A DNA stretch of 64,000 nucleotides from an uncultured Spirochaetales bacterium (GTDB taxonomy: Bacteria > Spirochaetota > Spirochaetia > DSM-27196 > DATKUC01), in the NCBI GenBank assembly GCA_964553615.1, contig CAZKMA010000021.1, forward strand, positions 4,402 to 68,401, in the 5' to 3' direction. The translations under genes and the position numbers were made by a program. This document shows, piece after piece, positions 50,726-64,000 of the stretch. Within the stretch, counting starts at the first letter, position 1. Each line of letters opens with the position of its first letter. The notes beneath the pieces are model-generated. The model was not told the DNA's origin and made no database searches. It was given only the letters and a program-made list of their open reading frames with translations.

Positions 50726-51547
50726 TTGGCAGATCAGGCATTGCGCGGCAAAGCAGTAGTTGTGACCGGTTCGAGCCGCGGCATTGGACGCGAGACGGCA
50801 CTTCGTTTGGGACTGCTCGGTGCCGGTGTCGTCATAAACGGCCGTGATACGGCTGTGCTCGAAAGGTCACGGGATTATCTTCTCCAACACGGCGTAGATG
50901 TGAATGTCTGCCAGGGCGATGTGACCAATCCTGAGGACTGTCGACGGCTGGTAGAGACGTGCGTAACCCGCTATGGAAGACTCGATGTATTGGTAAACAA
51001 CGCGGGAGTATCCATGCGAGGCACGTTTTCCGACCTCGTTCCTGAGGTGGTCGATCGCGTGTTGACCACAAACATTGCCGGAGCAGTGCTTCCATCCGTT
51101 GCTGCAATGTCCGAGCTCCGCAGGTCCGGCGGCTCGATCGTCTTCATCTCAAGTCTCGCGGCACTGCGCGGTTTCCCCGGAGTCTCTATCTACTCGGCGG
51201 CAAAGATGTCACTGACCGCAATTGCCCAATCCCTCGAAGCTGAGTTGTATGGTTCGGGCGTCCATGTCGGGATCGTCTATCTCGGTTTCACCGAGAATGA
51301 TCCCGAAAAGCGTTCCCTCTCCTCCGACGGATCGGAGATTTCCGTTCGGAGGAGGGCGCACATGACACAGGCTCAGGCTGCCGAACGTATTGTCAGCCTG
51401 GTGCTCCGGAGGAAACGGACTAGTGTCCTGACCATCGAGGGCCGACTTCTGGGTTTGCTTCAGAGGATGTTCCCGCGGCTCGTTCAGTTTGTCATGAACC
51501 GGTCCGGGGGGAAGATTCACCTGGAGGCAAACCATGACCGACCTTGA
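50726..51547 (+). CDS. short-chain dehydrogenase/reductase (SDR)
   Basis: TTG start. VVVTGSSRGIGRETA (TGxxxGxG), NNAG, and catalytic S...YSAAK. Confidence 0.85.
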   Translation: MADQALRGKAVVVTGSSRGIGRETALRLGLLGAGVVINGRDTAVLERSRDYLLQHGVDVNVCQGDVTNPEDCRRLVETCVTRYGRLDVLVNNAGVSMRGTFSDLVPEVVDRVLTTNIAGAVLPSVAAMSELRRSGGSIVFISSLAALRGFPGVSIYSAAKMSLTAIAQSLEAELYGSGVHVGIVYLGFTENDPEKRSLSSDGSEISVRRRAHMTQAQAAERIVSLVLRRKRTSVLTIEGRLLGLLQRMFPRLVQFVMNRSGGKIHLEANHDRP

Positions 51548-53066
51548 CAGTTGGATTGCAGATCGCACCTTTCATCACTCACAGTTTCAAAATGTTGGTG
51601 ATCTTGTTGCCCGGAAGGAGGCTCTCGGGGTCACCATTAGCCTCTGTTTCCCCGCGTTGAACGAAGAAAAGACCATTGGCCGGGAGATTCGCGTGCTGAA
51701 GCGTGAGTTTATGGAGCGCCATCGCCTGATCGACGAGATTGGCGTTGTGGACAGTGGCAGCACCGATCGGACGCGAGAGACAAGTGAGCGCGCCGGTGCG
51801 ACAGTATTCCTTGCTTCGGACTATCTCCCCGAGTTTGGACCCCGACGGGGAAAAGGCGAGAATCTCTGGAAGAGTCTCTATCTCTTTTCCGGCGATATTA
51901 TTGTGTGGGTTGATTCCGATATCCGGAATATTCATCCAAAGTTTGTTTACGGCCTGCTTGGACCTCTTCTGGAATATCCGGAGATAGGCTACGTGAAGGC
52001 GTTCTATCGTCGTCCTGTTCAGTCCGGCAGACGGATGGTTCCTGGAGGCGGCCGCGTAACCGAGCTGCTGGTTCGACCGTTTCTCAATCTTCTCTACCCC
52101 GACCTGGCGCTTCTCGCGCAGCCGCTTTCCGGCGAATATGCGGGCCGTCGGGCAATTCTCGAGCAGGTACCGTTTTTCAGCGGGTACGGCGTCGAGATCG
52201 GGCTTCTCATTGACATTGAACACCGGTTCGGGTTGCGGGCAATGGCACAGGTGGACATGGACGAGCGCGTTCACCGGAATCAAAATATTGAGAGTCTGCG
52301 CCGAATGTCCTACGTCATTCTCTCGGTGCTCATTAAGCGGTCGGAGCAGCTCGGCAAGCTTGCGCTGCTCGAAGGACTCGGGCACCAGATGAACATCGTA
52401 CAGCGCCAGGGAACGCACTATCTTCGTGCAACCGAGGAGGTGCACGGCGTCGAGCGTCCACCAATGATTACGGTGCATTCGTATCAGGAGCAGCGTGGCA
52501 TCCAGGAAGACGACACCACATTGATCGGAACCTTCATACAGTCCAATTCGACCATCGTTCCCGCAATCAGTGATCTTCTGGACACCGCCATTGTTCGACT
52601 CACCCTGTCCGCATCCGAGCGGGACGCGGCGCTCGGCGAACTCGTCGACCTTGTTCCCGACGATGTTCTGACCGGCAGTCGTTCACGGATTCTCGCCGGG
52701 CTGCTCGAGCGGGAAGAGCGGATGACAACCGGAGTAGGGCAGGGACTCGCGATACCGCACCTGGTCAGTTCGGAGATCCGTTCGCTGACCCTGGTAATTG
52801 GCGCTTCATCCACGGGGGTGGATTTCAACTCCCTGGACCAGATCCCGGTGAAGCTCATCTTCGTCATTCTTGCACCCGAAAACATGCGTTCCCGGTATCT
52901 GCAGGTTCTCGCGGGGCTTGCCCGACTCCTGCGGGAGGAGCAGATAGTTCAACGGGCGTTGACTTCTTCAACTGCAGAAGAGCTCATTGCTCTCATGAAA
53001 AAGTATGAGGCGCTCATCCGCCTGAAACGTGAGCTCGAACCGGGATCGCCCTCCCCGGGAACATAA
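51534..53066 (+). CDS. gpgS: glucosyl-3-phosphoglycerate synthase-like GT81 glycosyltransferase fused to a PTS EIIA(Ntr/Fru)-type domain
   Basis: N-terminal 330 aa: ISLCFPALNEE...RGKGENLWKSL...IIVWVDSDI...VKAFYRRP...GGGRVTELLVRPFLNLLYPDLA...QPLSGEYAGRR...GYGVEIGLLID (GpgS blocks, DxD). C-terminal 150 aa: TGVGQGLAIPH...VKLIFVILAP (PTS_EIIA_2 with the phosphorylatable His). It overlaps the SDR gene by 14 nt. Confidence 0.75.
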   Translation: MTDLDSWIADRTFHHSQFQNVGDLVARKEALGVTISLCFPALNEEKTIGREIRVLKREFMERHRLIDEIGVVDSGSTDRTRETSERAGATVFLASDYLPEFGPRRGKGENLWKSLYLFSGDIIVWVDSDIRNIHPKFVYGLLGPLLEYPEIGYVKAFYRRPVQSGRRMVPGGGRVTELLVRPFLNLLYPDLALLAQPLSGEYAGRRAILEQVPFFSGYGVEIGLLIDIEHRFGLRAMAQVDMDERVHRNQNIESLRRMSYVILSVLIKRSEQLGKLALLEGLGHQMNIVQRQGTHYLRATEEVHGVERPPMITVHSYQEQRGIQEDDTTLIGTFIQSNSTIVPAISDLLDTAIVRLTLSASERDAALGELVDLVPDDVLTGSRSRILAGLLEREERMTTGVGQGLAIPHLVSSEIRSLTLVIGASSTGVDFNSLDQIPVKLIFVILAPENMRSRYLQVLAGLARLLREEQIVQRALTSSTAEELIALMKKYEALIRLKRELEPGSPSPGT

Positions 53067-53186
53067 AACTGACTTTCTGAATAGTCTATATGGTCTATAT
53101 TTATCCGATTACTCTTGCGAAACATGCATATTTGGGTTATGCTTTAGGTTCAACATGCAACCCGTTGGGGTTAGGGGCAATTCTTC

Positions 53187-53381
53187 ATGAACGATGCAAT
53201 CGTTTATATGGAAGGCACCGAAAAGTCCTTTCCCGGTGTTCATGATCTCGATAATTGTCGTTTCGAGTTGCTTCCCGGAGAGGGCCATGCGCCGGTGCGC
53301 CGGTTTGTCGACACCGGTTTCCACTGGTACGGCAAGACCAACATAGACGATTCTCCAATCAAGTCACTTCTCTATAACTGA
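53187..53381 (+). pseudogene. relic of a sugar-type ABC transporter ATPase (N-terminal ~35 aa recognisable, Walker A lost)
   Basis: IVYMEGTEKSFPGVHDLDNCRFELLPGEGHAPV parallels the RbsA/MglA-type start L.M.GI.KSFPGV.ALDNV...L.PGE.HAL.GENGAGKST. The sequence then diverges and stops after 64 codons. It lies in an AT-rich patch. Confidence 0.5.
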
Positions 53382-53403
53382 GTTTCCCGTTTCCAGGCCA
53401 TGC

Positions 53404-53438
53404 GGGCTGTCCGGTTTATTCCGGGCAGCCCCTTTTTT
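53404..53438 (+). terminator. Rho-independent terminator after the relic ORF
   Basis: Stem gggctgtccgg / ccgggcagccc (11 bp, one G-U pair) with loop tttatt, then a T6 run at 53433-53438. Confidence 0.75.
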
Positions 53439-53593
53439 CGGCTTGCTGCGTGTGCGCGGCATCCGGCTCCGGGCGAAGCCGCGCCTTGCAGGGCGGTCCA
53501 TCCGTGAGCAGGAGCTCCAACAGGAATCATGGACATGTTTTCCGGAAATGCATCACAAAAATCCCGTCACGTGCGTCTTATACTGGGAAGACA

Positions 53594-54145
53594 ATGAATG
53601 CAGACAATGACCACGACATGACACGTTCACGAATTGAGAAAACGTACCGCGAAGGCAGGAAGGGTTTCCTGCGCCGCGCGCGGCGTGCAGCCGGGTCACT
53701 GGTAGATGCGGAGGATGTTGTTCAGGATGCGTTTCTGGCGGCACTTGCCAACATCGACGCGCTGACTCTCGTGAACAACGCAACCTCGTGGGTCTACACC
53801 GCAATACGGAATCGAGCAATCGATTTGTGGAGACGCAGCAGGACCCGGGAGGCGTCGGGGCAAATTGACATTGCCGACGAGACGCTCTCGGAAATAGCGT
53901 TTGCCACCGGGCTTCGTCCAGACGACGCATTCATTCTGGGGGAACTCTCGGATGCGCTTGTGGATGCGATAGACGCGCTGCCTGAACCGCAGCGGGCGGT
54001 TATCCATGCACAGGTATTTGAAGGAACAACGTTTCGAGAGATTTCTGAGCAATCCGGGATTCCGATTGAGACATTGGCGGCCCGAAAGCGCGCTGCAGTG
54101 CGTGCGCTGGGTCTGGCCCTTCGTGGCTGGATCGAGGAAGACTAA
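53594..54145 (+). CDS. ECF RNA polymerase sigma factor
   Basis: Region 2 DAEDVVQDAFLAAL...WVYTAIRNRAIDLWRR and region 4 LPEPQRAVIHAQVFEGTTFREISEQSGIPIETLAARKRAAVRAL. The ATG at 53594 is preferred over the track start at 53450. Confidence 0.85.
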   Translation: MNADNDHDMTRSRIEKTYREGRKGFLRRARRAAGSLVDAEDVVQDAFLAALANIDALTLVNNATSWVYTAIRNRAIDLWRRSRTREASGQIDIADETLSEIAFATGLRPDDAFILGELSDALVDAIDALPEPQRAVIHAQVFEGTTFREISEQSGIPIETLAARKRAAVRALGLALRGWIEED

Positions 54146-55412: not shown

Positions 55413-57361
55413 ATTGTACCCCGGCGCATGAGCCAGACGGTCTGATACGGTTCCAGAACCAGCGGTTCGACTGCCGAATGCGGCGAGTTCGTAATAAGAT
55501 CCGTAAACGAAATTCCTTCTCCCTCCGCTCGCAGAATACTTCCCGGGAAGTTGATTTTCTGCTCGCCAAAATTCGCCAGCACGAACAACCGCGACGCAGC
55601 ATGTTCTCGGACAAAGCCGAGGACGTGAGGATTCCTGGTATCTGGAAACTGTGTCGGAACGGAAGCTGCAAACACCGGGTGACCTTTCCTTATCCGGATC
55701 ATCTGCTCGAGCCTGGTAAAGACTCTGCCGACCGGACTGTGAGGCTCGGCGCGGAGTCGGTCGCGCTCCGGATCGTATTTCGGGCGATGAACCCAACGTG
55801 AGTCGTGCGCCTTGACCGGGTCTTTCGTGAACGAGTAGTCATTGAGGGTGGCAAGTTCGTCTCCAAGGTAGATCAGCGGAATTCCGCCGACCGCGAGGAT
55901 GATGCTGTGAACGAGAATTATCCGGCGAACCGCGAGTTCGACCTCGACCTCAGTCTCTTCTGCCAGCGCTTTCTCGAGTCCCGATAGAGATGCGCAGGTG
56001 CCTGAAATGCGGCAGTCTCGTGTTTCGGGATTATACTGGAACGGCATTCCGCGCGCAAAGCTTCCCGGGAAAACACCCGTGTAAAAGTCGTTCAGAAACA
56101 TGCGGTGGTCGAAACCATTTTTCCCCATAGCGGCCGCGTCTTCGTCGGAAAAGGTCCAACCGATATCATCGTGACATCGCACGTAGTTGACCCACGAACA
56201 ACTGTTCGGAATTTCAAAACGCTTCTGCATCGAGTAGCGCAGTAAGTCTATCTCCCGCGTGGCGAGTCCCTCCCACAGGAGAGCCATGAGAAGCGGATTG
56301 TAAGAGAGGGCACATTCATCCTTGCTGATGTACTGTTCCACCTCATCAGGGTGCACAATAGCCTCGGACTTGAACATGAGCGACGGACAGGCAAGCGCTG
56401 AGACCGCGTTGAACGCCTGAATGAGCGTGTGCGCCTGCGGAAGATTCTCACACGTGGTGCCCTCCTCCTTCCATGTAAAGGCAAGCGCGTCCAGTCGAAG
56501 AACATCCACGCCGCAGTTGGCGAGGAAGATCATCTCCTCGCACATGCTGCGGAACACTTCCGGATTATGATAGTTCAGATCCCACTGGTAACTGTTGAAG
56601 GTTGTCCACACCCACTTCTGCACATCTTCACGGTAGGTGAAATTTCCACGCCGAACCTGGGGGAATATTTCCCGAAGGTTTTTTTCGAACCTGTCAGGCA
56701 TGGTCCTGTCCGGAAAGAGGAAATAGTAATCCTCGTAGGCCGGGTCGCCCTGCAGCGCTCGAACCGCCCACTCGTGTTCATCGGAGGTGTGATTGAAAAC
56801 AAAATCCACTACCAGGCTGATTTCTGCACCGTGGAGCTTATCCGTGAGCGTGCGAAGATCCGCTATGGTTCCGAGATTCGGTTGCACTGCGCGGTAGCTG
56901 GAGACTGCGTAACCTCCATCGTTTTCCCCTTCAGGACAGGCAAAGAACGGCATGAGATGGAGATACGTCACGCCAAGTTGCTTCAGGTAAGGAATGCGGT
57001 CTTGCATTCCTGCAAGGTCTTTGGCGTACAAGTCGACATAACAGACCGCACCGAGCATCTGCTCGGACGTGAACCATGACGGAGACTCCTCCCGAATACG
57101 GTCAAGAGATCTCAGCTCTTTCGGCCTTGCAGACCAACCATTCAGTGCGGTCTTGAGTATTCGTTCAAGGTGGTAGAAAAAGTCGAATTGATTTCCATAG
57201 AGTCCGAGGAGCAACCGGAACAGTCGTTCGAAGTGATGCTCGAGCCGTTGCGCAAATAGCTGGAAGCTTTGCAGCTCCGCTTCCGGCAGATTTTCTCCAA
57301 GGCGGGGCAGGAGGCGATCAAGGGTCCGTCGTGCATCGGGAGACATGACCCTATTAAACAA
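55409..57361 (-). CDS. amylosucrase (GH13 sucrose glucosyltransferase)
   Basis: Collinear with my recollection of Neisseria amylosucrase over the whole length: VCYVDL.A.DL.G...IPYL..LG.TYLHLMP.F.CPEG..DGGYAVSSYR, VVDF.FNHTS.EHEWA, TFNS.QWDLNY.NP.VF, LR.DA.AF.WK..GT.CENLPQAH, NYVR.HDDIGW. Confidence 0.9.
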   Translation of the reverse strand: MFNRVMSPDARRTLDRLLPRLGENLPEAELQSFQLFAQRLEHHFERLFRLLLGLYGNQFDFFYHLERILKTALNGWSARPKELRSLDRIREESPSWFTSEQMLGAVCYVDLYAKDLAGMQDRIPYLKQLGVTYLHLMPFFACPEGENDGGYAVSSYRAVQPNLGTIADLRTLTDKLHGAEISLVVDFVFNHTSDEHEWAVRALQGDPAYEDYYFLFPDRTMPDRFEKNLREIFPQVRRGNFTYREDVQKWVWTTFNSYQWDLNYHNPEVFRSMCEEMIFLANCGVDVLRLDALAFTWKEEGTTCENLPQAHTLIQAFNAVSALACPSLMFKSEAIVHPDEVEQYISKDECALSYNPLLMALLWEGLATREIDLLRYSMQKRFEIPNSCSWVNYVRCHDDIGWTFSDEDAAAMGKNGFDHRMFLNDFYTGVFPGSFARGMPFQYNPETRDCRISGTCASLSGLEKALAEETEVEVELAVRRIILVHSIILAVGGIPLIYLGDELATLNDYSFTKDPVKAHDSRWVHRPKYDPERDRLRAEPHSPVGRVFTRLEQMIRIRKGHPVFAASVPTQFPDTRNPHVLGFVREHAASRLFVLANFGEQKINFPGSILRAEGEGISFTDLITNSPHSAVEPLVLEPYQTVWLMRRGTI

Positions 57362-57499
57362 CAGAACCGTTGCCGTTTCAAGTTGCTTCCGGTTTCCGAC
57401 GCCGGGACGTCATTTTTTCCGTTGGACTTCCGGAAAACGGGCGCAGTGATTATCGTTTTCAGATATAATGGTGAATCGGGGCGCTATAACGCGGTTGAT

Positions 57500-59140
57500 A
57501 TGAGCACATGGACAGTTCCCGGAGCGGTCTTCGGCTTCGGCAGTACAGTATTTCTCTTCGGCGTATTCCTGTATCTCTATATTCGCGAACATCGGCAACC
57601 GCTATTCTGGTTGACCATTGCGTGGGGTCTCTACGGTGTCCGCTATGTTATAGAGTTGCTGGAGATAGTGATTGGTTCGTCCACGCTGGAGCGGACACTC
57701 ATTCAGGTTCTCGTCATCCTCAGCGCCAACTTCCTCGTGCTCGGCACTCATACCCTTACCGGCCGGAGAGGGACTTTCCGTTTGACCGCCGTCTCTCTGG
57801 TTGCCGTTGTATTTGTTATTGGGTTCTCCTTTTTCCCGGGGCTCAATCTTGCTTCAACTTTGCTCGCCTTTGCTTTTACCGGTAGTCTGTACATCTGGAT
57901 CGGGGTAGTGTTCCTTGGTGTTCAGTCGGAGGCTTCTATCGGGTCCCGAGCCACGGCCGTGTTGTTTATTCTCTGGGGGCTCCATAAGTTTGACTATCCG
58001 TTTCTCCGGCAGCACCCGGTCGCTGCGGGATGGGGTTTCCTTCTCGCTGCGCTTCTGGGCATGGGCACCGCAATCTCGATTCTCCTGCACTATCTGGATG
58101 TGAGCAAGAACGCACTGGTCCGGAGTGAAAAGCTGTACAGGTTGCTCTCCGAACGTGCTCACGACATGATATTCCGGTACACTTTCGACCCCAGTCCGTC
58201 TTTTGAGTATGTGAGTCCGTCCAGCACAACCCTCGTCGGCTACTCGCCGGAGGAACATTATGCAGATCCTTCGCTTGCCGGCAAAATAGTGCATCCCGAC
58301 GATCGAGCCATTTTTACCTCGATACCGCAGTCGAACACGGGGGATATCCGCACCTTCCGCGTCATTCACCGGGATGGACGTGTTATCTGGCTCGAACAGT
58401 TATCCACGATCCTGCGCAACGAAAAAGGACGAACCATTGCGGTCGAGGGAACAATCCGGGATGTCTCGACGCGTGTTGAAAGGGAGGAGATGCTGCGCCG
58501 AGGCGAAGAACATCTGCATAGCGCTGTGCGCGAAAAGGATACGCTTCTTCAGGAACTCCATCATCTGGTAAATAATAATCTGGCCATCATACTCAGCCTT
58601 GTAGATTTCGAGATGCGGAAATACGGTGGCGCGGTCATGCCGGCACTTCGGAAAATCCAGCGCCGCGTAATGTCCGTTGCGTTGATCCACTCGCTTCTCT
58701 ACAACGGCAAGGATTCCCGGAGTCTGGATTTCCGGCAATATTGTCAATCTCTCGTGGAACATATCCGGGTAACATATCCGAAACCCTCGGCACGGCATGA
58801 GATCGTCGTTTCGATTGCCGCAGGAAATCTGGATATCGACCGGGCGAAGTCGTGTGGACTGATCATATCGGAGCTCGTCCCGAATGCGCTCGAACACGCG
58901 TTCGGGACCGGTGAGACTCAAGGAAGGGTGGAAGTCACATTCTCATGCGAGTCCGAAAGGTGTACTCTTGTCGTCTGTGATAACGGCTGTGGTTTCCCGC
59001 CGGACTTTGACTGGCGTCGGAAAACGAACTCCGGCCTCTTTATCGTGAGTTCCCTGTGTGACCAGCTCGACGCTCACATGAACATTCAATCAACACCCGG
59101 TCTTCGCGTGGAAGTTTCATTTCCCAGGAAAGGGAGGTAG
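57500..59140 (+). CDS. 7-TM sensor histidine kinase (PAS + HisKA_2 + HATPase_c)
   Basis: Seven N-terminal TM helices and a PAS region (MIFRYTFDP...HPDD...GRVIWLEQ). The H-box is ELHHLVNNNL, the N-box ELVPNALEHAF and G1 CDNGCGFP. The first in-frame ATG not overlapping the amylosucrase gene is chosen. Confidence 0.85.
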   Translation: MSTWTVPGAVFGFGSTVFLFGVFLYLYIREHRQPLFWLTIAWGLYGVRYVIELLEIVIGSSTLERTLIQVLVILSANFLVLGTHTLTGRRGTFRLTAVSLVAVVFVIGFSFFPGLNLASTLLAFAFTGSLYIWIGVVFLGVQSEASIGSRATAVLFILWGLHKFDYPFLRQHPVAAGWGFLLAALLGMGTAISILLHYLDVSKNALVRSEKLYRLLSERAHDMIFRYTFDPSPSFEYVSPSSTTLVGYSPEEHYADPSLAGKIVHPDDRAIFTSIPQSNTGDIRTFRVIHRDGRVIWLEQLSTILRNEKGRTIAVEGTIRDVSTRVEREEMLRRGEEHLHSAVREKDTLLQELHHLVNNNLAIILSLVDFEMRKYGGAVMPALRKIQRRVMSVALIHSLLYNGKDSRSLDFRQYCQSLVEHIRVTYPKPSARHEIVVSIAAGNLDIDRAKSCGLIISELVPNALEHAFGTGETQGRVEVTFSCESERCTLVVCDNGCGFPPDFDWRRKTNSGLFIVSSLCDQLDAHMNIQSTPGLRVEVSFPRKGR

Positions 59141-59142
59141 CT

Positions 59143-59532
59143 GTGGCAGAGCCTGCGATCATTCGAGTGCTTGTCGTTGAAGACGAAGCGTTGATCCGGA
59201 TGACACTCCGGTTCATGCTCGAGGACCTCGGTTGTGAGGTGGTCGGGGAAACTTCCTACGGCGAGGATGTGCGCATGATGTGCGAGGAGGTATCTCCGGA
59301 GGTGGTATTCATGGACATCCGGCTCAAGGGAACTATGGACGGAATCCAGGCGGCCGGCCAGGTGAACGAAGCAGGCAATGCTGCGATTGTCTTCATGAGC
59401 GCCTACGATTACGCCGGAAGAACTCAGGCCGGCAATCTGAGGAATGTCGTGGCCTTTGTCGGAAAGCCGTTTCTGCAAGAAGACATCGAAACCGTACTTC
59501 CGGCAGTTCGGAAACTCAGGAGTACGGATTAG
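59143..59532 (+). CDS. stand-alone response regulator receiver domain (CheY-like)
   Basis: GTG start 2 nt after the kinase stop. VLVVEDE...VVFMDIRL (phospho-Asp)...VFMSAY...GKPF. Confidence 0.85.
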   Translation: MAEPAIIRVLVVEDEALIRMTLRFMLEDLGCEVVGETSYGEDVRMMCEEVSPEVVFMDIRLKGTMDGIQAAGQVNEAGNAAIVFMSAYDYAGRTQAGNLRNVVAFVGKPFLQEDIETVLPAVRKLRSTD

Positions 59533-59545
59533 CGGTGCATCTGTC

Positions 59546-59875
59546 TCACTCGCCCGGACTATCTTCGAATACCACTGCAGTGCCGTATGCCATGAGTTCC
59601 GAAGCACCCTGCATCATGGAAGTCGTCGTGAATCGTACCGCAACCACCGCGTTGGCACCGAGCTCCTTTGCGTCTTCCATCATCCGGTCAAGGGCCTGCT
59701 CGCGGGATTCCGCCATCATCTTCGTGTAGTCGACTATTTCTCCGCCGACCAGGTTCTTGAATGCCGCCATCAAATCCCGCCCGATATGTCGGGCACGAAT
59801 TGTGTTTCCGCGTACGAGTCCAAGGACCCGGCCGATTCGCTTCCCGGGAATAGTTTCGGTGGTTACCAGAATCAT
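59546..59875 (-). CDS. ybjQ: YbjQ/UPF0145 family protein
   Basis: MILVTTETIPGKRI..VLGLVRGNTIRARHIGRDLMAAFKNLVGGEI.DYTKMM.ESREQALDRM...A.ELGANAVV.VRF matches YbjQ over its full length. Confidence 0.9.
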   Translation of the reverse strand: MILVTTETIPGKRIGRVLGLVRGNTIRARHIGRDLMAAFKNLVGGEIVDYTKMMAESREQALDRMMEDAKELGANAVVAVRFTTTSMMQGASELMAYGTAVVFEDSPGE

Positions 59876-60306
59876 CGGATCACCTCTTTATATCGATCGT
59901 TGCGGGATTCCCGTATTCTATCCGAAATGGTAATACCGAGTAAGATCAGAAAACCCGTAACCGCGACAGCCACGATCCCCTTGACCCAGATGTCGGCTCT
60001 GTCCGTGGTGAACAGGGTAATAATCGCATAGACCAGCAGTAACACGTAGGAACCGATGAAGAGTCCGAAGCCGACCGAACTGCCGATCTTTCGCGTGGTC
60101 TTCTTTGCCACCGCATCGTACCACTCTACCGGTCTTTCGGGTGCAGTAGTGCTTTCCAGACGGCGGCGAAGTCTGAGCAACTCGACGTATTCGTTCCTCA
60201 GGTCATATGAGCCTTCCACCTGTGACATGACCTCCGCTATTTCCTGCTCCGGCAGCTCGTTGTCTACGAGCGCCTGGATCTTGAGCTTCAGTTCTTCGAT
60301 TTTCAC
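59872..60306 (-). CDS. membrane-anchored anti-sigma factor (no zinc motif)
   Basis: Overlaps both neighbours by 4 nt. N-terminal LVDNELPEQEIAEV anti-sigma-like helix and two C-terminal TM helices. Confidence 0.6.
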   Translation of the reverse strand: MKIEELKLKIQALVDNELPEQEIAEVMSQVEGSYDLRNEYVELLRLRRRLESTTAPERPVEWYDAVAKKTTRKIGSSVGFGLFIGSYVLLLVYAIITLFTTDRADIWVKGIVAVAVTGFLILLGITISDRIRESRNDRYKEVIR

Positions 60307-60875
60307 TGCGACTCCTCCTTCAGAAGGACTTTCTTCAGATTCATTCGCGCGTTGTACAACCGTGACATGACGGTTCCAACCGGAATCTCCAGAATTTCGG
60401 CCATTTCAGCATAGGTCGAATTCTCAAAATGCTTCAGAATGATGATTTCCCGATGCTCGCTGCTGAGCTCTCCGAGCGCCCGGTGAAGCGCAGCATTCTC
60501 CTGCTCGGCAACCAATGCCGCGTCAGGGTCCGGCGTAACGTCCGACAGAAGTGCATCCTGGTCTCCCAGGTTCACGGTGCGACTACGTCGTTTCCGGTGC
60601 GTTGATGTGAGGTTGCGGGCAATTCGGTACAGCCACGGGTAGAAAGGTCGACAGACTTCGAACGAGGCGAGCGCGCGGTAGGCACGATAGAACGCCTCCT
60701 GCGTAAGGTCCGCCGCGTCCTCCGGGTTGCCCGTAAGATAGTAAATCGCCCGGTGCAGGCGCGGTCCGCATTCTCGAACGAGCACGCCGAACGCATTGCG
60801 GTCTCCCCTCTGTGCCCGCTGGATGAGCTCCGACTCACTGAGTGCGCTTTTATCGAGCATCTGTGTGCTTGCCAT
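60303..60875 (-). CDS. ECF RNA polymerase sigma factor (RpoE-like)
   Basis: LIQRAQRGDRNAFGVLV...PEDAADLTQEAFYRAYRAL.SFE....FYPWLYRIARN (region 2). YAEMAEILEIPVGTVMSRLYNARMNLKK (region 4). Confidence 0.9.
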   Translation of the reverse strand: MASTQMLDKSALSESELIQRAQRGDRNAFGVLVRECGPRLHRAIYYLTGNPEDAADLTQEAFYRAYRALASFEVCRPFYPWLYRIARNLTSTHRKRRSRTVNLGDQDALLSDVTPDPDAALVAEQENAALHRALGELSSEHREIIILKHFENSTYAEMAEILEIPVGTVMSRLYNARMNLKKVLLKEESQ

Positions 60876-60878
60876 CTG

Positions 60879-62543
60879 CTACCGCCGGATTGCGAAGGAA
60901 CGCTCGTAGCGACGGTCGGCATAACGCAGGACTGAATGCCTGAGAACGAGCCATGCACCAAACGCTGCGGTGGCCGCGACAAAATTGGCAATGGATCCGG
61001 ATACACCCGCGTACGCCGCGACACCGGTAATCAACGCCAGCCCGAGGAGCCCGAGGATGACCAGTCCCATTGAGAGTAATACATTCATGTTCTGTTTCAT
61101 TGCCTGTTGGGGATGACTCCAGTCGGTCAACGGCCGGCGAAGATCTCCATAGACAGTAATAAAAAAAAGCATGAGGAGAATTGGAATCCCGGCCACAACA
61201 AGCGAGATTGCTTCCAGTAGCGTGAAGCTCAGAAGAACCGACACAATGACGCTGTTGAGCGCGAACGCCGGGTAGAAGAGCAGGAAATAACATCCAAGTT
61301 TTCCGCCGACCTGCGTCGAACCCGGCAGAGGAAGACTCAGGCTGAAGGAGATATTCCGTCCTTCCCGAGAGATACTCGTGGCGGAGACTGTGTTGAATCC
61401 AGCCATCATTGAGAGGACCGCGAGTGTTATCGGTGCCGTGAAGGGGAAGCTTCGGATGGTTGGAACCATCGAAGCGAGGAGATCCTGCGGTGTAACGAGA
61501 ACAACGATGATCAAAACCAGCGGAATTGCCAGCACCTCGCCAATAGCCTCGAAGAGAAATGCGGAATTTGAGGTGAGGATGAAGAACTCCCTCGCGATAA
61601 GCGCTCGCACTACCGATCGTCGCGGGCGTACACTCTCCGTTGCGCGGTGTGCGTTTCTTCCCCGCGATTCGCCCTGACTGGTAAGCTGCGAAACATAGTT
61701 TGTGCGAACAATGGTCAAAACGCCCACGACAACAGCAATCTGAAAGACCACGAAGAGCATCAGAGCCAGTGGTGAGACGAACGCATCCGCGCCCCAGGAT
61801 GCGGGAAATACGGCTCGCTCGATTCTCGAGAAGACATCCGCTGCTGTCTTCATTGCGGCCGTCGGCTGCATCCCCGCAAGACTCCCCATCATCGTTCGCG
61901 AAATGGCTACCTGGAATGCTATCAGCAGAAGGAAGAGAACGCCCATTCCCGAAGCTTCGAGCGCAACACGATGTTTGCTCACGTTCACTGCTCGCGTAAT
62001 AGTGAAGACCAGAAGCAAGGCGAGGTTTACCGGCAGCAGACCGCCGAGCAGCATAGCAACTGCCGTGGCAACAATTCCGAGAAGGGATATTCCTGCGCCG
62101 ATGAAGTACACGCACACTGCCGGCACAAATGCGGCGAGGTAGATTGGGAAACTGTAGGCATAGAGAAGAAGATAGTTAACGCCGACTATGCGTCCGGGAG
62201 GAATGGGCAGTGCAAGCAGCATCCTCCCGTCGCGGGCAAGGTAGAAGACACTGAGGCCAAGCGGAAAGAGAGCGACAAATGTGAGCACCCACGCAACGAG
62301 CAACCCGGCAAACAGAACGAGTTCCTCGTTTCCTGTCGAGCGGCCGATCGCGAATATTGCCACATAGTTATTTATGAGGAAGAAGACCATGACCGCAGCC
62401 CCGACTGCGATTCCGAGCGCTGCCAGCGGCACAACCCATAGCTGGTCCTGACTTCGCAACTGCCTGAGCTTCGCACGCGAGAACCACGTGGTCGCCTCTA
62501 TCTTAGCCTTCAGAAGTGACAGTGTGCTGATCGAATTTTCCAT
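60879..62543 (-). CDS. large polytopic permease of a putative ABC exporter (about 12 TM)
   Basis: 554 aa, almost entirely hydrophobic helices. Its start overlaps the upstream ABC ATPase gene by 41 nt. It resembles the 'putative ABC exporter' permeases paired with DrrA-like ATPases. Confidence 0.7.
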   Translation of the reverse strand: MENSISTLSLLKAKIEATTWFSRAKLRQLRSQDQLWVVPLAALGIAVGAAVMVFFLINNYVAIFAIGRSTGNEELVLFAGLLVAWVLTFVALFPLGLSVFYLARDGRMLLALPIPPGRIVGVNYLLLYAYSFPIYLAAFVPAVCVYFIGAGISLLGIVATAVAMLLGGLLPVNLALLLVFTITRAVNVSKHRVALEASGMGVLFLLLIAFQVAISRTMMGSLAGMQPTAAMKTAADVFSRIERAVFPASWGADAFVSPLALMLFVVFQIAVVVGVLTIVRTNYVSQLTSQGESRGRNAHRATESVRPRRSVVRALIAREFFILTSNSAFLFEAIGEVLAIPLVLIIVVLVTPQDLLASMVPTIRSFPFTAPITLAVLSMMAGFNTVSATSISREGRNISFSLSLPLPGSTQVGGKLGCYFLLFYPAFALNSVIVSVLLSFTLLEAISLVVAGIPILLMLFFITVYGDLRRPLTDWSHPQQAMKQNMNVLLSMGLVILGLLGLALITGVAAYAGVSGSIANFVAATAAFGAWLVLRHSVLRYADRRYERSFAIRR

Positions 62544-63261
62544 CGGTTAGCTCCAGAAAAAGTCTTTCAAGCGTAGCGTTCTCTTCTCCGGCAGAACTGC
62601 GCAACTCTTCGAGCTGGCCGACCGCAATCATGCCCCCCCGATGAATGATACCAACCTGATCGCAGAGCCGCTCGGCCACATCGAGTACGTGGGTCGAGAA
62701 GAATACGGTCTTTCCGCGTTTGCACAGGCTGCGCATCTTCTCCTTCAGGAGAAAAGCCGAACGTGGATCCAACCCGACAATAGGCTCATCCAGAATGAAG
62801 ACATCCGGATCGTGGAGCAGAGCCGCAATAATGGAGACCTTCTGCTTCATGCCGTGGGAATAGGAGGCAATTCGATCCGGAAGCGCATCTTTCAATTCAA
62901 ACTCTTCGGCAAGTTTTTCTATGATTACGCGTTCGGCGTTTCCAACCCCGTAGACATCTGCAATGAACGAAAGAAATCGGAGCCCGCTCATGTTTTCGTA
63001 GAGCGCAGGCTCATCGGGCACATATCCGATCCTTCGCTTCACCTCAATGGGGTTCTTCAGAACGTCGATATCCTCGACACGCACGGATCCACTATCCGGC
63101 TTCAGTAACCCGATGAGGGTCTTGATCGTCGTTGTCTTTCCCGCTCCGTTTGGCCCCAGGAACCCGAAGAGCTCCCCGCGCTGGACAGTGAGACTCAGCC
63201 CATCCAGCGCGCGGGCCCCACCGCGGACGTACGTCTTTGTGACGTCCCTCAGTTCAATCAT
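62503..63261 (-). CDS. ABC transporter ATP-binding protein (ABC-2/DrrA-like)
   Basis: Walker A GPNGAGKTT, signature YSHGMKQK (variant of LSGGM.QR), Walker B FILDEP and an H-loop STHV. The RBS is GGAG. Confidence 0.9.
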   Translation of the reverse strand: MIELRDVTKTYVRGGARALDGLSLTVQRGELFGFLGPNGAGKTTTIKTLIGLLKPDSGSVRVEDIDVLKNPIEVKRRIGYVPDEPALYENMSGLRFLSFIADVYGVGNAERVIIEKLAEEFELKDALPDRIASYSHGMKQKVSIIAALLHDPDVFILDEPIVGLDPRSAFLLKEKMRSLCKRGKTVFFSTHVLDVAERLCDQVGIIHRGGMIAVGQLEELRSSAGEENATLERLFLELTDGKFDQHTVTSEG

Positions 63262-63608
63262 CTTCTACTCCAGTTCTGAACTTGGAATGTGCTCCCGTGC
63301 AGCATCCGTCATTGCACCAATGCGTGCGGGGACAGGCAGGATCACCGGAATCGCCGCCGGTCGCTGGCTGATGAAAATCCACTGGAGCCTTCGACTCATT
63401 CAGATGTCTATATTACTCCTATGCGTCCGGATTATTCATGTTCTCTTTCCACGTTTTTTTGTGCTCCCGGAATCCCGGCCTTCGGCCGACCGTGTTGGTC
63501 GACGGCGATGTTCCGGGCGCGCGGAGGTGATTTGAAGGAGATAGGTGACAGGTCTGCGCCGTGGATTTGTGTGAGTCTCAAAATGCCGATTCCCGACCTC
63601 GCACATGC

Positions 63609-63640
63609 GGGCCAGGATAATTCCTGGCCCGGGCGTTTTT
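63609..63640. terminator. GC-rich hairpin (9-bp perfect stem) with T-run on the + strand, 60 nt downstream of the minus-strand SBP gene
   Basis: gggccagga-taat-tcctggccc, then gggcgttttt. Strand assignment is ambiguous because the T-run is on +, yet the only nearby terminating gene is on -. Confidence 0.4.
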
Positions 63641-63689
63641 ACAAAATGCTCTTGCCGTATTTCGCCCGATCTATGCGGTCGTCGTTGTA

Positions 63690-64000
63690 CTATCGACCTT
63701 CACCAAGCTGGTGAATTATCCTGTCCGGATTGAACTTCTGCGGGATAAGACCCAGCTGCACCATCGTGGCAACCGAATCGACATAGCGTGGAACATCGAG
63801 GGTGCCGTACCCGGCGGGCGAGGTGTAGAGCGCGATGGTTGAAAGCAAAGCATCTTTCAGATACGGCTTCTGGCTCTCGTTGGCGCCGGTAATGTATTTC
63901 ATGGCAATCCCAACCGCCTCGTCCGGGTGGGCTGCGGTATAGGCCATAGCCTTCCTTGTAGCGTTGAAGAACCGGTCAAGAACCGGCCCCCGTTGGGCAA
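63690..64000 (-). CDS. ABC transporter substrate-binding protein, NMT1/THI5-like (nitrate/sulfonate/taurine type), 3' part only
   Basis: The frame stays open to the window edge (AQRGPVLDRFFNATRKAMAYTAAHPDEAVGIAMKYI...). The F..A..KA..Y...NPDEA block is typical of NMT1-like SBPs. The gene starts beyond 64000. Confidence 0.65.
   Translation of the reverse strand, partial: AQRGPVLDRFFNATRKAMAYTAAHPDEAVGIAMKYITGANESQKPYLKDALLSTIALYTSPAGYGTLDVPRYVDSVATMVQLGLIPQKFNPDRIIHQLGEGR

Follow-up and report, generated by a model that had tools for sequence, protein, structure and literature searches.

In a stretch of 64,000 nt from an uncultured Spirochaetales bacterium (positions 4,402-68,401 of contig CAZKMA010000021.1, called the window in the following; coordinates are window positions unless another locus is named), five consecutive genes on the minus strand code for the ATPase and the permease of an ATP-binding cassette (ABC) exporter, an extracytoplasmic function (ECF) sigma factor, a membrane anti-sigma factor and a protein of the YbjQ/UPF0145 family. 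It was found that this locus joins two modules which are separate everywhere else examined, the ABC exporter being the first and the trio of sigma factor, anti-sigma factor and YbjQ the second. The conserved unit is the trio composed of the ECF sigma factor, the anti-sigma factor with its two transmembrane (TM) helices and YbjQ, and not the linkage of this trio to the exporter, which is a recent and lineage-specific operon fusion. From the gene spacing and the position of a promoter motif, it appears probable that the five genes form one operon autoregulated by its own sigma factor, into which the exporter was recruited as an output.

The ATPase gene (62503-63261, 252 aa) overlaps the permease gene (60879-62543, 554 aa) by 41 nt, and the permease gene is separated by a gap of 3 nt from the sigma factor gene (60303-60875, 190 aa). 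The latter overlaps the anti-sigma factor gene (59872-60306, 144 aa, GTG start) by 4 nt in the sequence GTGA, and a second 4-nt overlap, ATGA, connects the anti-sigma factor gene to ybjQ (59546-59875, 109 aa). Shine-Dalgarno-like sequences, GGAG, AGGAGG and AGAGG, precede the starts of the permease, anti-sigma factor and ybjQ genes, respectively. The second ATG of the sigma factor gene, located 15 nt downstream, could be an alternative start, which would extend the gap from 3 to 18 nt and would change nothing material. The chain of overlapping genes had been described in a first-pass annotation of the DNA, and its order, domains and junctions were confirmed from the listing of open reading frames, by domain searches and by direct reading of the junctions. 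The permease-sigma junction is identical in the comparison loci L002 and L003, which stem from independent assemblies of this organism, and is not an assembly chimera, because both of them span it. In L002, a frameshift splits the sigma factor gene into pieces of 155 and 33 aa (L002:1820-2390), which probably reflects a fault in the assembly or the reads and not biology.

For the collection of trio loci, an alignment of anti-sigma factor homologues was used as the query, which identified 17 genomes of Spirochaetota species and a dozen metagenome contigs. The genes for sigma factor, anti-sigma factor and YbjQ were present in fixed order in 17 of 17 Spirochaetota loci from GTDB and in every metagenome locus of sufficient length. 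In this way, at least 24 further Spirochaetota loci with the trio were identified, and two far more distant family members also carry it. The only exception for ybjQ is L013 (8001-8502), where a remnant coding for 26 C-terminal residues follows the anti-sigma factor gene. Genes for LptG/LptF-like permeases, which are mostly followed by a gene for a DnaJ-domain protein and aroA, are oriented divergently to the trio in most relatives (L006-L012, L014-L017, L019-L020, L042-L044 and L048; for example, L011:4704-7354, minus strand). L013 is among the trio loci which do not adjoin Lpt-like genes.

The first-pass annotation had suggested a check of neighbourhood conservation, and here the exporter link was retained neither at the other trios nor in the lineages with a homologous permease. 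By tblastn, no homologue of the ABC ATPase or permease was detected within up to 8 kb of the other trios, and the exporter is missing from all other trio loci for which upstream sequence is available. The trio is absent from the vicinity of the permease homologues in all six lineages examined (29-50% identity), the ABC pair without trio being present in L023-26, L031-34, L054 and L055. The ATPase of the window is 69-73% identical to its counterparts in L023-L034, where the ABC pairs stand alone. In the more distant ABC pairs of L033, L034 and L054, which represent two permease-homologue lineages, a gene for a bPH_5 PH-domain protein (169 aa) was identified directly before the ATPase gene and coupled to it (L033:5482-5991, L034:742-1251, L054:3777-4286); this gene is absent from the window.

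The gene order around the exporter genes is shared with relatives. In L031 and L032, the order is an NMT1-type gene, further on a ROK gene on the opposite strand, the ATPase and permease genes, a convergent response regulator gene with a HisKA_2 kinase gene, and a pseudouridine synthase gene. The window shares both the NMT1-type gene upstream, which has syntenic counterparts before the ABC pair in L023 and L031 (49-52% identity), and the block of regulator, kinase and pseudouridine synthase genes downstream. From this shared synteny it follows that the exporter is at its ancestral position and that its union with the trio is lineage-specific. In relatives, the response regulator/kinase pair directly follows the ABC permease, and the trio of the window sits exactly between the permease and response regulator genes. 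In L031, the 3' ends of the permease gene and this regulator gene overlap by 11 nt, so that the trio appears to be located in a former convergent junction of zero length; as judged from the gene order, its position is insertion-like. The kinase and regulator were also considered as components of a PhyR-like partner switch, which was rejected, because the pair shares its synteny with the ABC genes instead of the trio, and the regulator consists of a receiver domain only.

A second line of evidence is provided by a promoter motif of the trio. In 15 of 16 orthologous loci, the start codon of the sigma factor gene is preceded at a distance of a few bases by (G)TGAATA-N16-GTA(G)TA. For a position weight matrix (PWM), 14 sites immediately before orthologous sigma factor genes were used, and the motif recurs in L018/L046, L030, L042, L044 and L052, which were not used for training. 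The single best match to this PWM on both strands of the 64-kb window, with 18.5 bits, is the candidate sigma-dependent and presumably autoregulatory promoter CATGAATAATCCGGACGCATAGGAGTAATATAGAC (63406..63440, minus strand, with TGAATA at 63438-63433 and GTA at 63416-63414), located 145 nt upstream of the ATPase ATG. A score of 18.5 bits was reached in 5 of 300 random 64-kb windows, which corresponds to about 1.3e-7 per position and about 6e-5 for the 428-nt region upstream of the operon. At the ABC pairs of relatives without trio, TGAATA-N16-GTA was not found by the PWM scan. Because the trio follows 3 nt behind the permease stop codon and the family motif lies upstream of the ATPase gene, the five genes are probably transcribed as one mRNA. 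The positive feedback through the exporter promoter which the first-pass annotation had proposed fits these results, the family motif of the window being located only upstream of the ATPase gene and not in the 3' end of the permease gene.

Promoters of the SigW type, TGAAAC-N16-CGTA, resemble the trio motif, and those of the RpoE type, GGAACTT-N16-TCAAA, differ from it. The motif is also different from a conserved promoter of housekeeping type on the lpt strand, TTGCAT-N17-TGnTACGAT, to which it is arranged back-to-back; the LptG-like gene has a GTG start about 7 nt after the latter promoter, so that its mRNA looks leaderless. A second PWM match in the window (1434-1400), which lies inside an open reading frame of 535 aa, and a match of 21 bits inside a thiolase gene in L037 were taken as chance. 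A search for an ECF-type promoter upstream of the operon, also suggested in the first-pass annotation, did yield a generic candidate, GGAAC-N17-CGGTC at 63514-63488 (minus strand), which precedes the TGAATA motif by about 50 nt. This candidate is conserved in no relative and was not adopted, though from its sequence it could serve another ECF sigma factor. The 428-nt region was homologous neither to the comparison loci nor to the N-termini of sigma factors and, therefore, contains no remnant of a duplicated 5' end of a sigma factor gene. No unusual structure was identified in the 150-nt leader (z = -0.37).

The locus might also consist of two abutting transcription units, the exporter being expressed from its own promoter and the trio from an internal promoter in the 3' coding region of the permease gene, with a coincidental motif upstream. 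The independence of the two modules everywhere else would agree with this explanation, as would the score of the window motif, which is below that of all but one training site and is attained somewhere in a few random windows. Against it stand the gap between the permease and sigma factor genes of just 3 nt (at most 18 nt), the minus strand of the permease gene, in which neither a PWM match of 10 bits or more, the 3' end included, nor a sigma-70-like site was found, and the small chance, given above, that the top match of the window would fall into the region upstream of the operon on the correct strand. We regard two separate units as unlikely. The first-pass annotation had named an internal promoter directly upstream of the sigma factor gene, combined with a lack of conserved linkage, as the findings which would speak against a common circuit; the linkage to the transporter is indeed not conserved, but an internal promoter was not detected by the PWM and sigma-70 scans.

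Several points weigh against a single autoregulated operon. The window site scores 18.5 bits, whereas 13 of the 14 training sites reach 20.5-29.9 bits and the remaining one, in L004, 16.7 bits. Its -10 element (GTAATAT) can also be read as one of housekeeping type, and the promoter at 63440-63406 is a candidate proposed from a motif match. The leader implied for the ATPase gene, about 143 nt, is much longer than in the near-leaderless relatives, and a weak, divergent internal promoter in the 3' end of the permease gene may escape the PWM scan. In addition, at least two events are needed for an upstream promoter and a downstream trio to arise around an ABC pair which stayed in place. Finally, read-through from the upstream gene is possible, because the hairpin preceding the operon has no U-tract on the minus strand. 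This G+C-rich hairpin (63608..63631, not assigned to a strand, with a 10-pair stem including 8 GC pairs) is located between the operon and the 3' end of the NMT1-type gene for a substrate-binding protein (63690..64000, minus strand), and a T-run is present on the plus strand only; from its position, it may insulate the operon from the NMT1-type gene.

At the other end of the operon, the convergent genes for the HisKA_2/PAS histidine kinase and the single-domain response regulator, assigned by domain searches, are located on the plus strand (57269..59532). The stop codons of ybjQ and the response regulator gene are 13 nt apart (59532-59546), and no terminator-like hairpin was found between them. 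No Rfam element was matched within 59000-64000, and the scan for sigma-70 promoters and terminators gave nothing informative on the minus strand.

The sigma factor is an ECF (group 4) sigma factor of the RpoE/AlgU/SigW-like kind, which consists of the sigma-2 and sigma-4 domains only in 190 aa. Both domains were identified by their Pfam models (Sigma70_r2 at 5.1e-17 and Sigma70_r4_2 at 1.2e-14), and TIGR02937 was matched with 101 bits at a cutoff of 42.9. The best NCBIfam equivalogs are RpoE, SigW and SigY (SigY at 3.5e-30), and the closest solved structures in the PDB are AlgU (5e-28), SigW (3e-25) and RpoE (5e-22). Orthologues with 41-51% identity are present in all trio loci from GTDB. As is typical for the ECF class, the anti-sigma factor gene is located directly downstream, and this pairing is kept in all related loci. 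A second ECF sigma factor of the window (within 53450-54145, plus strand) is encoded beside a fusion protein of glycosyltransferase-2 and PTS_EIIA_2 domains (51534-53066; whole region 51534-54145), and is syntenic in relatives without trio.

For the anti-sigma factor, no Pfam match was obtained. Its N-terminus contains a motif of the QALVDNEL type found in anti-sigma domains, and a profile-versus-PDB comparison gave a weak match to the N-domain of MucA/RseA (E 0.57-0.75 over 42 residues). Alignment, hydropathy and an AlphaFold2 model agree on two TM helices connected by a loop of about 5-8 residues and on a cytoplasmic C-terminus, the helices of the model comprising residues 3-14, 20-32, 34-52, 60-67, 72-100 and 106-143. 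The first TM helix contains an invariant Gly-Ser and a nearly invariant Tyr, and the cytoplasmic C-tail, DRxRESRxDxYK, is among the most conserved segments of the protein. The family comprises 139 representatives at E<=1e-10, which are mostly full-length with about 144 aa. In the alignment, the zinc motif H-x3-C-x2-C is absent from the window protein, which reads SQVEGSYDLRNEY at that place, so that the description in the first-pass annotation as a membrane anti-sigma factor lacking the zinc motif was borne out. It thereby differs from the zinc-binding anti-sigma factors (ZAS, PF13490), although two family members, P0006 and P0018, keep the motif as H-VQS-C-YN-C and some relatives match PF13490. 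From the model, the protein is best described as a class-I-type anti-sigma factor with an N-terminal anti-sigma domain of three or four helices and a TM hairpin, with neither a periplasmic domain nor a zinc motif.

The ATPase of the exporter matches ABC_tran at 1.1e-29 and resembles the DrrA subfamily (TIGR01188 at 1.1e-68, under the trusted cutoff). The permease has no direct match in Pfam or NCBIfam; it is linked transitively to PF16949 (ABC_tran_2) by its homology (E ~1e-21) to proteins which match this family. Hydropathy predicts about 12 TM segments, and the AlphaFold2 model (predicted local distance difference test score 88.9, predicted TM-score 0.81) is all-helical with about 12 long helices and short loops throughout. 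The best full-length Foldseek match of the model is 8k1n_C, which was deposited as a 'mycobacterial efflux pump' with 12 TM helices and which we take to be the Rv1217c-Rv1218c pump. The next matches are NosY, Wzm, CcmB, PmtCD and ABCG proteins, all with the fold of ABC-2/type V exporters; the Foldseek matches have probabilities of 0.9-1.0 and weak E-values (0.06, TM-score about 0.4). According to the model, the permease is a fused, double-6-TM (about 12 TM) exporter permease of the ABC-2/type V class and a distant member of PF16949, and the two proteins together have the composition of this class, with a DrrA-like subunit and two membrane domains of six TM helices each. The DrrA-like ATPase and the fold match of the permease model are shared with exporters of the DrrAB and Rv1217c-Rv1218c type, but the sequence similarity of the window permease is below the Pfam thresholds.

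These properties of anti-sigma factor and permease bear on the suggestion made in the first-pass annotation that transporter activity is the signal. In such a flux-sensing arrangement, the hairpin anti-sigma factor would dock on the ABC permease and would release the sigma factor in response to transport, as an ECF analogue of BceAB-BceS. The anti-sigma factor lacks an extracytoplasmic domain and has, like the intramembrane-sensing kinases, a minimal loop, and its gene belongs to the tightly coupled unit that also contains the permease gene. The combination of a membrane regulator whose extracellular loop is minimal with a neighbouring ABC exporter, which this regulator may induce, is shared with BceRS-BceAB. 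However, the at least 24 loci without an exporter nearby code for anti-sigma factors of the same architecture, including the residues invariant in the TM helices and the tail, the window protein shows no evident lineage-specific change in the alignment with its homologues, and in none of the six homologue lineages is the exporter accompanied by the trio. Furthermore, BceB is an FtsX/MacB-type permease with 10 TM helices and a large extracellular domain, whereas the window permease has the ABC-2/type V fold. The Bce regulator is a two-component system and not a pair of anti-sigma factor and ECF sigma factor, and the pairing of regulator and transporter is conserved for Bce modules but not for the module described here. 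By permease fold and gene pairing, the window locus is not a Bce-type module, and flux sensing, for which the comparison of genomes gave no support, is considered very improbable.

The protein which the first-pass annotation missed as an invariant partner of the sigma/anti-sigma pair, translationally coupled to it, is YbjQ. It matches the Pfam family YbjQ_1 (PF01906) with 135.8 bits (cutoff 23; 9.7e-40) over model residues 1-102 of 103, and its homologues in the PDB are 2gtc, 1vr4 and 1y2i. With this clear match it resembles E. coli YbjQ and the B. cereus proteins 1VR4/2GTC, and it is a cytoplasmic protein which, since the matched structures were deposited with five chains, is probably pentameric. 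Across the trio loci, YbjQ is 67-80% identical, as compared to 39-58% for sigma factor or anti-sigma factor. The ATGA overlap between the anti-sigma stop codon and the ybjQ ATG was identified in every examined locus with a full-length ybjQ, which on sequence grounds points to translational coupling of the two genes. In E. coli, ybjQ is coupled to a different partner, overlapping by 4 nt the gene for the peptidoglycan amidase AmiD (Amidase_2; L053: NC_000913.3 904593-905743), whereas in the window and its relatives the partner is the anti-sigma factor gene. At the distant trio locus L052 (5033-8637), lgt and a gene for an Amidase_2 protein are located directly upstream of the sigma factor gene and a gene for a PIG-L deacetylase downstream. 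The amidase neighbours in E. coli and L052 possibly hint at a cell-envelope theme for YbjQ. No functional study of YbjQ/UPF0145/DUF74 was found in the literature, and no YbjQ-associated ECF group is described in the main text of the re-classification of ECF sigma factors (PMC7826278).

The constant position of ybjQ raises the possibility that its product is a regulatory subunit of the anti-sigma factor, a cytoplasmic counterpart of RseB/MucB which would bind as a pentamer to the C-tail, the exporter being irrelevant for signalling. This would be compatible with the autoregulated operon favoured here. The ATGA coupling is suggestive of such a role, as is the position of ybjQ, which corresponds to that of rseB in rpoE-rseABC, and the same applies to the high conservation and the cytoplasmic location of the C-tail and to the conservation of YbjQ, which far exceeds that of its partners. 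On the other hand, L013 keeps sigma factor and anti-sigma factor after the loss of most of ybjQ, the C-tails in L017 and L018 are divergent while YbjQ is normal, homologues are widespread without sigma factors, and in E. coli the coupling is to amiD. We consider a regulatory YbjQ a possibility of some weight, though not the expected outcome.

For the favoured reading, an autoregulated operon with the exporter as a recruited output, the following sequence of events is proposed. The anti-sigma domain would hold the sigma factor at the membrane until a signal from the membrane or the envelope leads to inactivation of the anti-sigma factor. Intramembrane proteolysis is a reasonable guess for this step, because the first TM helix contains the helix-destabilising, invariant Gly-Ser together with the Tyr, and the periplasmic loop is tiny. 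The freed sigma factor would raise transcription from 63440-63406, with a transcript which would start near 63405 and span all five genes. By this, sigma factor, anti-sigma factor and YbjQ would be amplified, and the exporter would be induced as an added output in this organism. YbjQ would be made stoichiometrically with the anti-sigma factor and might act either as a cytoplasmic co-regulator on its C-tail or as a conserved effector. A more specific proposal, which we put forward as speculative, is that the UPF0145 pentamer is a cytoplasmic regulatory subunit on the C-tail which gates the intramembrane inactivation; this would be an undescribed ECF design, with the exporter captured under the promoter of the module.

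Circuits of this kind are known, and the window locus is a lineage-specific variant of them. In rpoE-rseABC of E. coli and algU-mucABCD of P. aeruginosa, genes for sigma factor, anti-sigma factor and an accessory protein are likewise arranged in this order, and like these the window operon is apparently autoregulated. The pair of sigma factor and anti-sigma factor would operate in the manner of RpoE-RseA or AlgU-MucA. The relation to these systems is also reflected in the sigma factor, which is nearest to the AlgU, SigW and RpoE structures, in the weak similarity of the anti-sigma N-terminus to MucA/RseA, and in an envelope theme, the trio being divergent from LptF/LptG-like genes in most relatives. 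However, RseA and MucA are single-pass proteins with a periplasmic domain to which RseB/MucB binds and which DegS/AlgW cleaves, whereas the two-TM hairpin of the window protein has no region for binding RseB/MucB or for cleavage by DegS. The third gene codes for the cytoplasmic YbjQ instead of the periplasmic RseB, and no RseB-like gene is present at the window locus.

A further comparison is offered by the sigY operon of B. subtilis, in which YxlF and YxlG constitute an ABC transporter. The content of ECF sigma factor, anti-sigma factor and ABC transporter is therefore shared with the window. In B. subtilis, the sigma factor gene is the first and the transporter the last, whereas in the window the transporter comes first; moreover, the window linkage is lineage-specific and not family-wide, and the sigY operon contains no YbjQ. 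It was reported that sigY-yxlCDEFG is a sigma-autoregulated operon in which the ECF sigma factor is paired with the anti-sigma factor YxlC (PMC4105308).

For the linkage of exporter and sigma factor, the finding is mainly corrective, in that it is not a conserved flux-sensing design. The locus nevertheless offers a clear case, found in nature, of an efflux pump which has come under an apparently autoregulated ECF circuit. The conserved trio is the more useful result: the YbjQ/UPF0145 family is widespread and has been represented by crystal structures for years. The coupling to an anti-sigma factor gives this family a testable context in envelope or membrane stress, often beside LptF/G-like genes. 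The hairpin anti-sigma factor itself, with a conserved cytoplasmic tail and no periplasmic domain, is an unusual design. If YbjQ were indeed to gate the anti-sigma factor, this would be the first function for the long-orphan YbjQ family.

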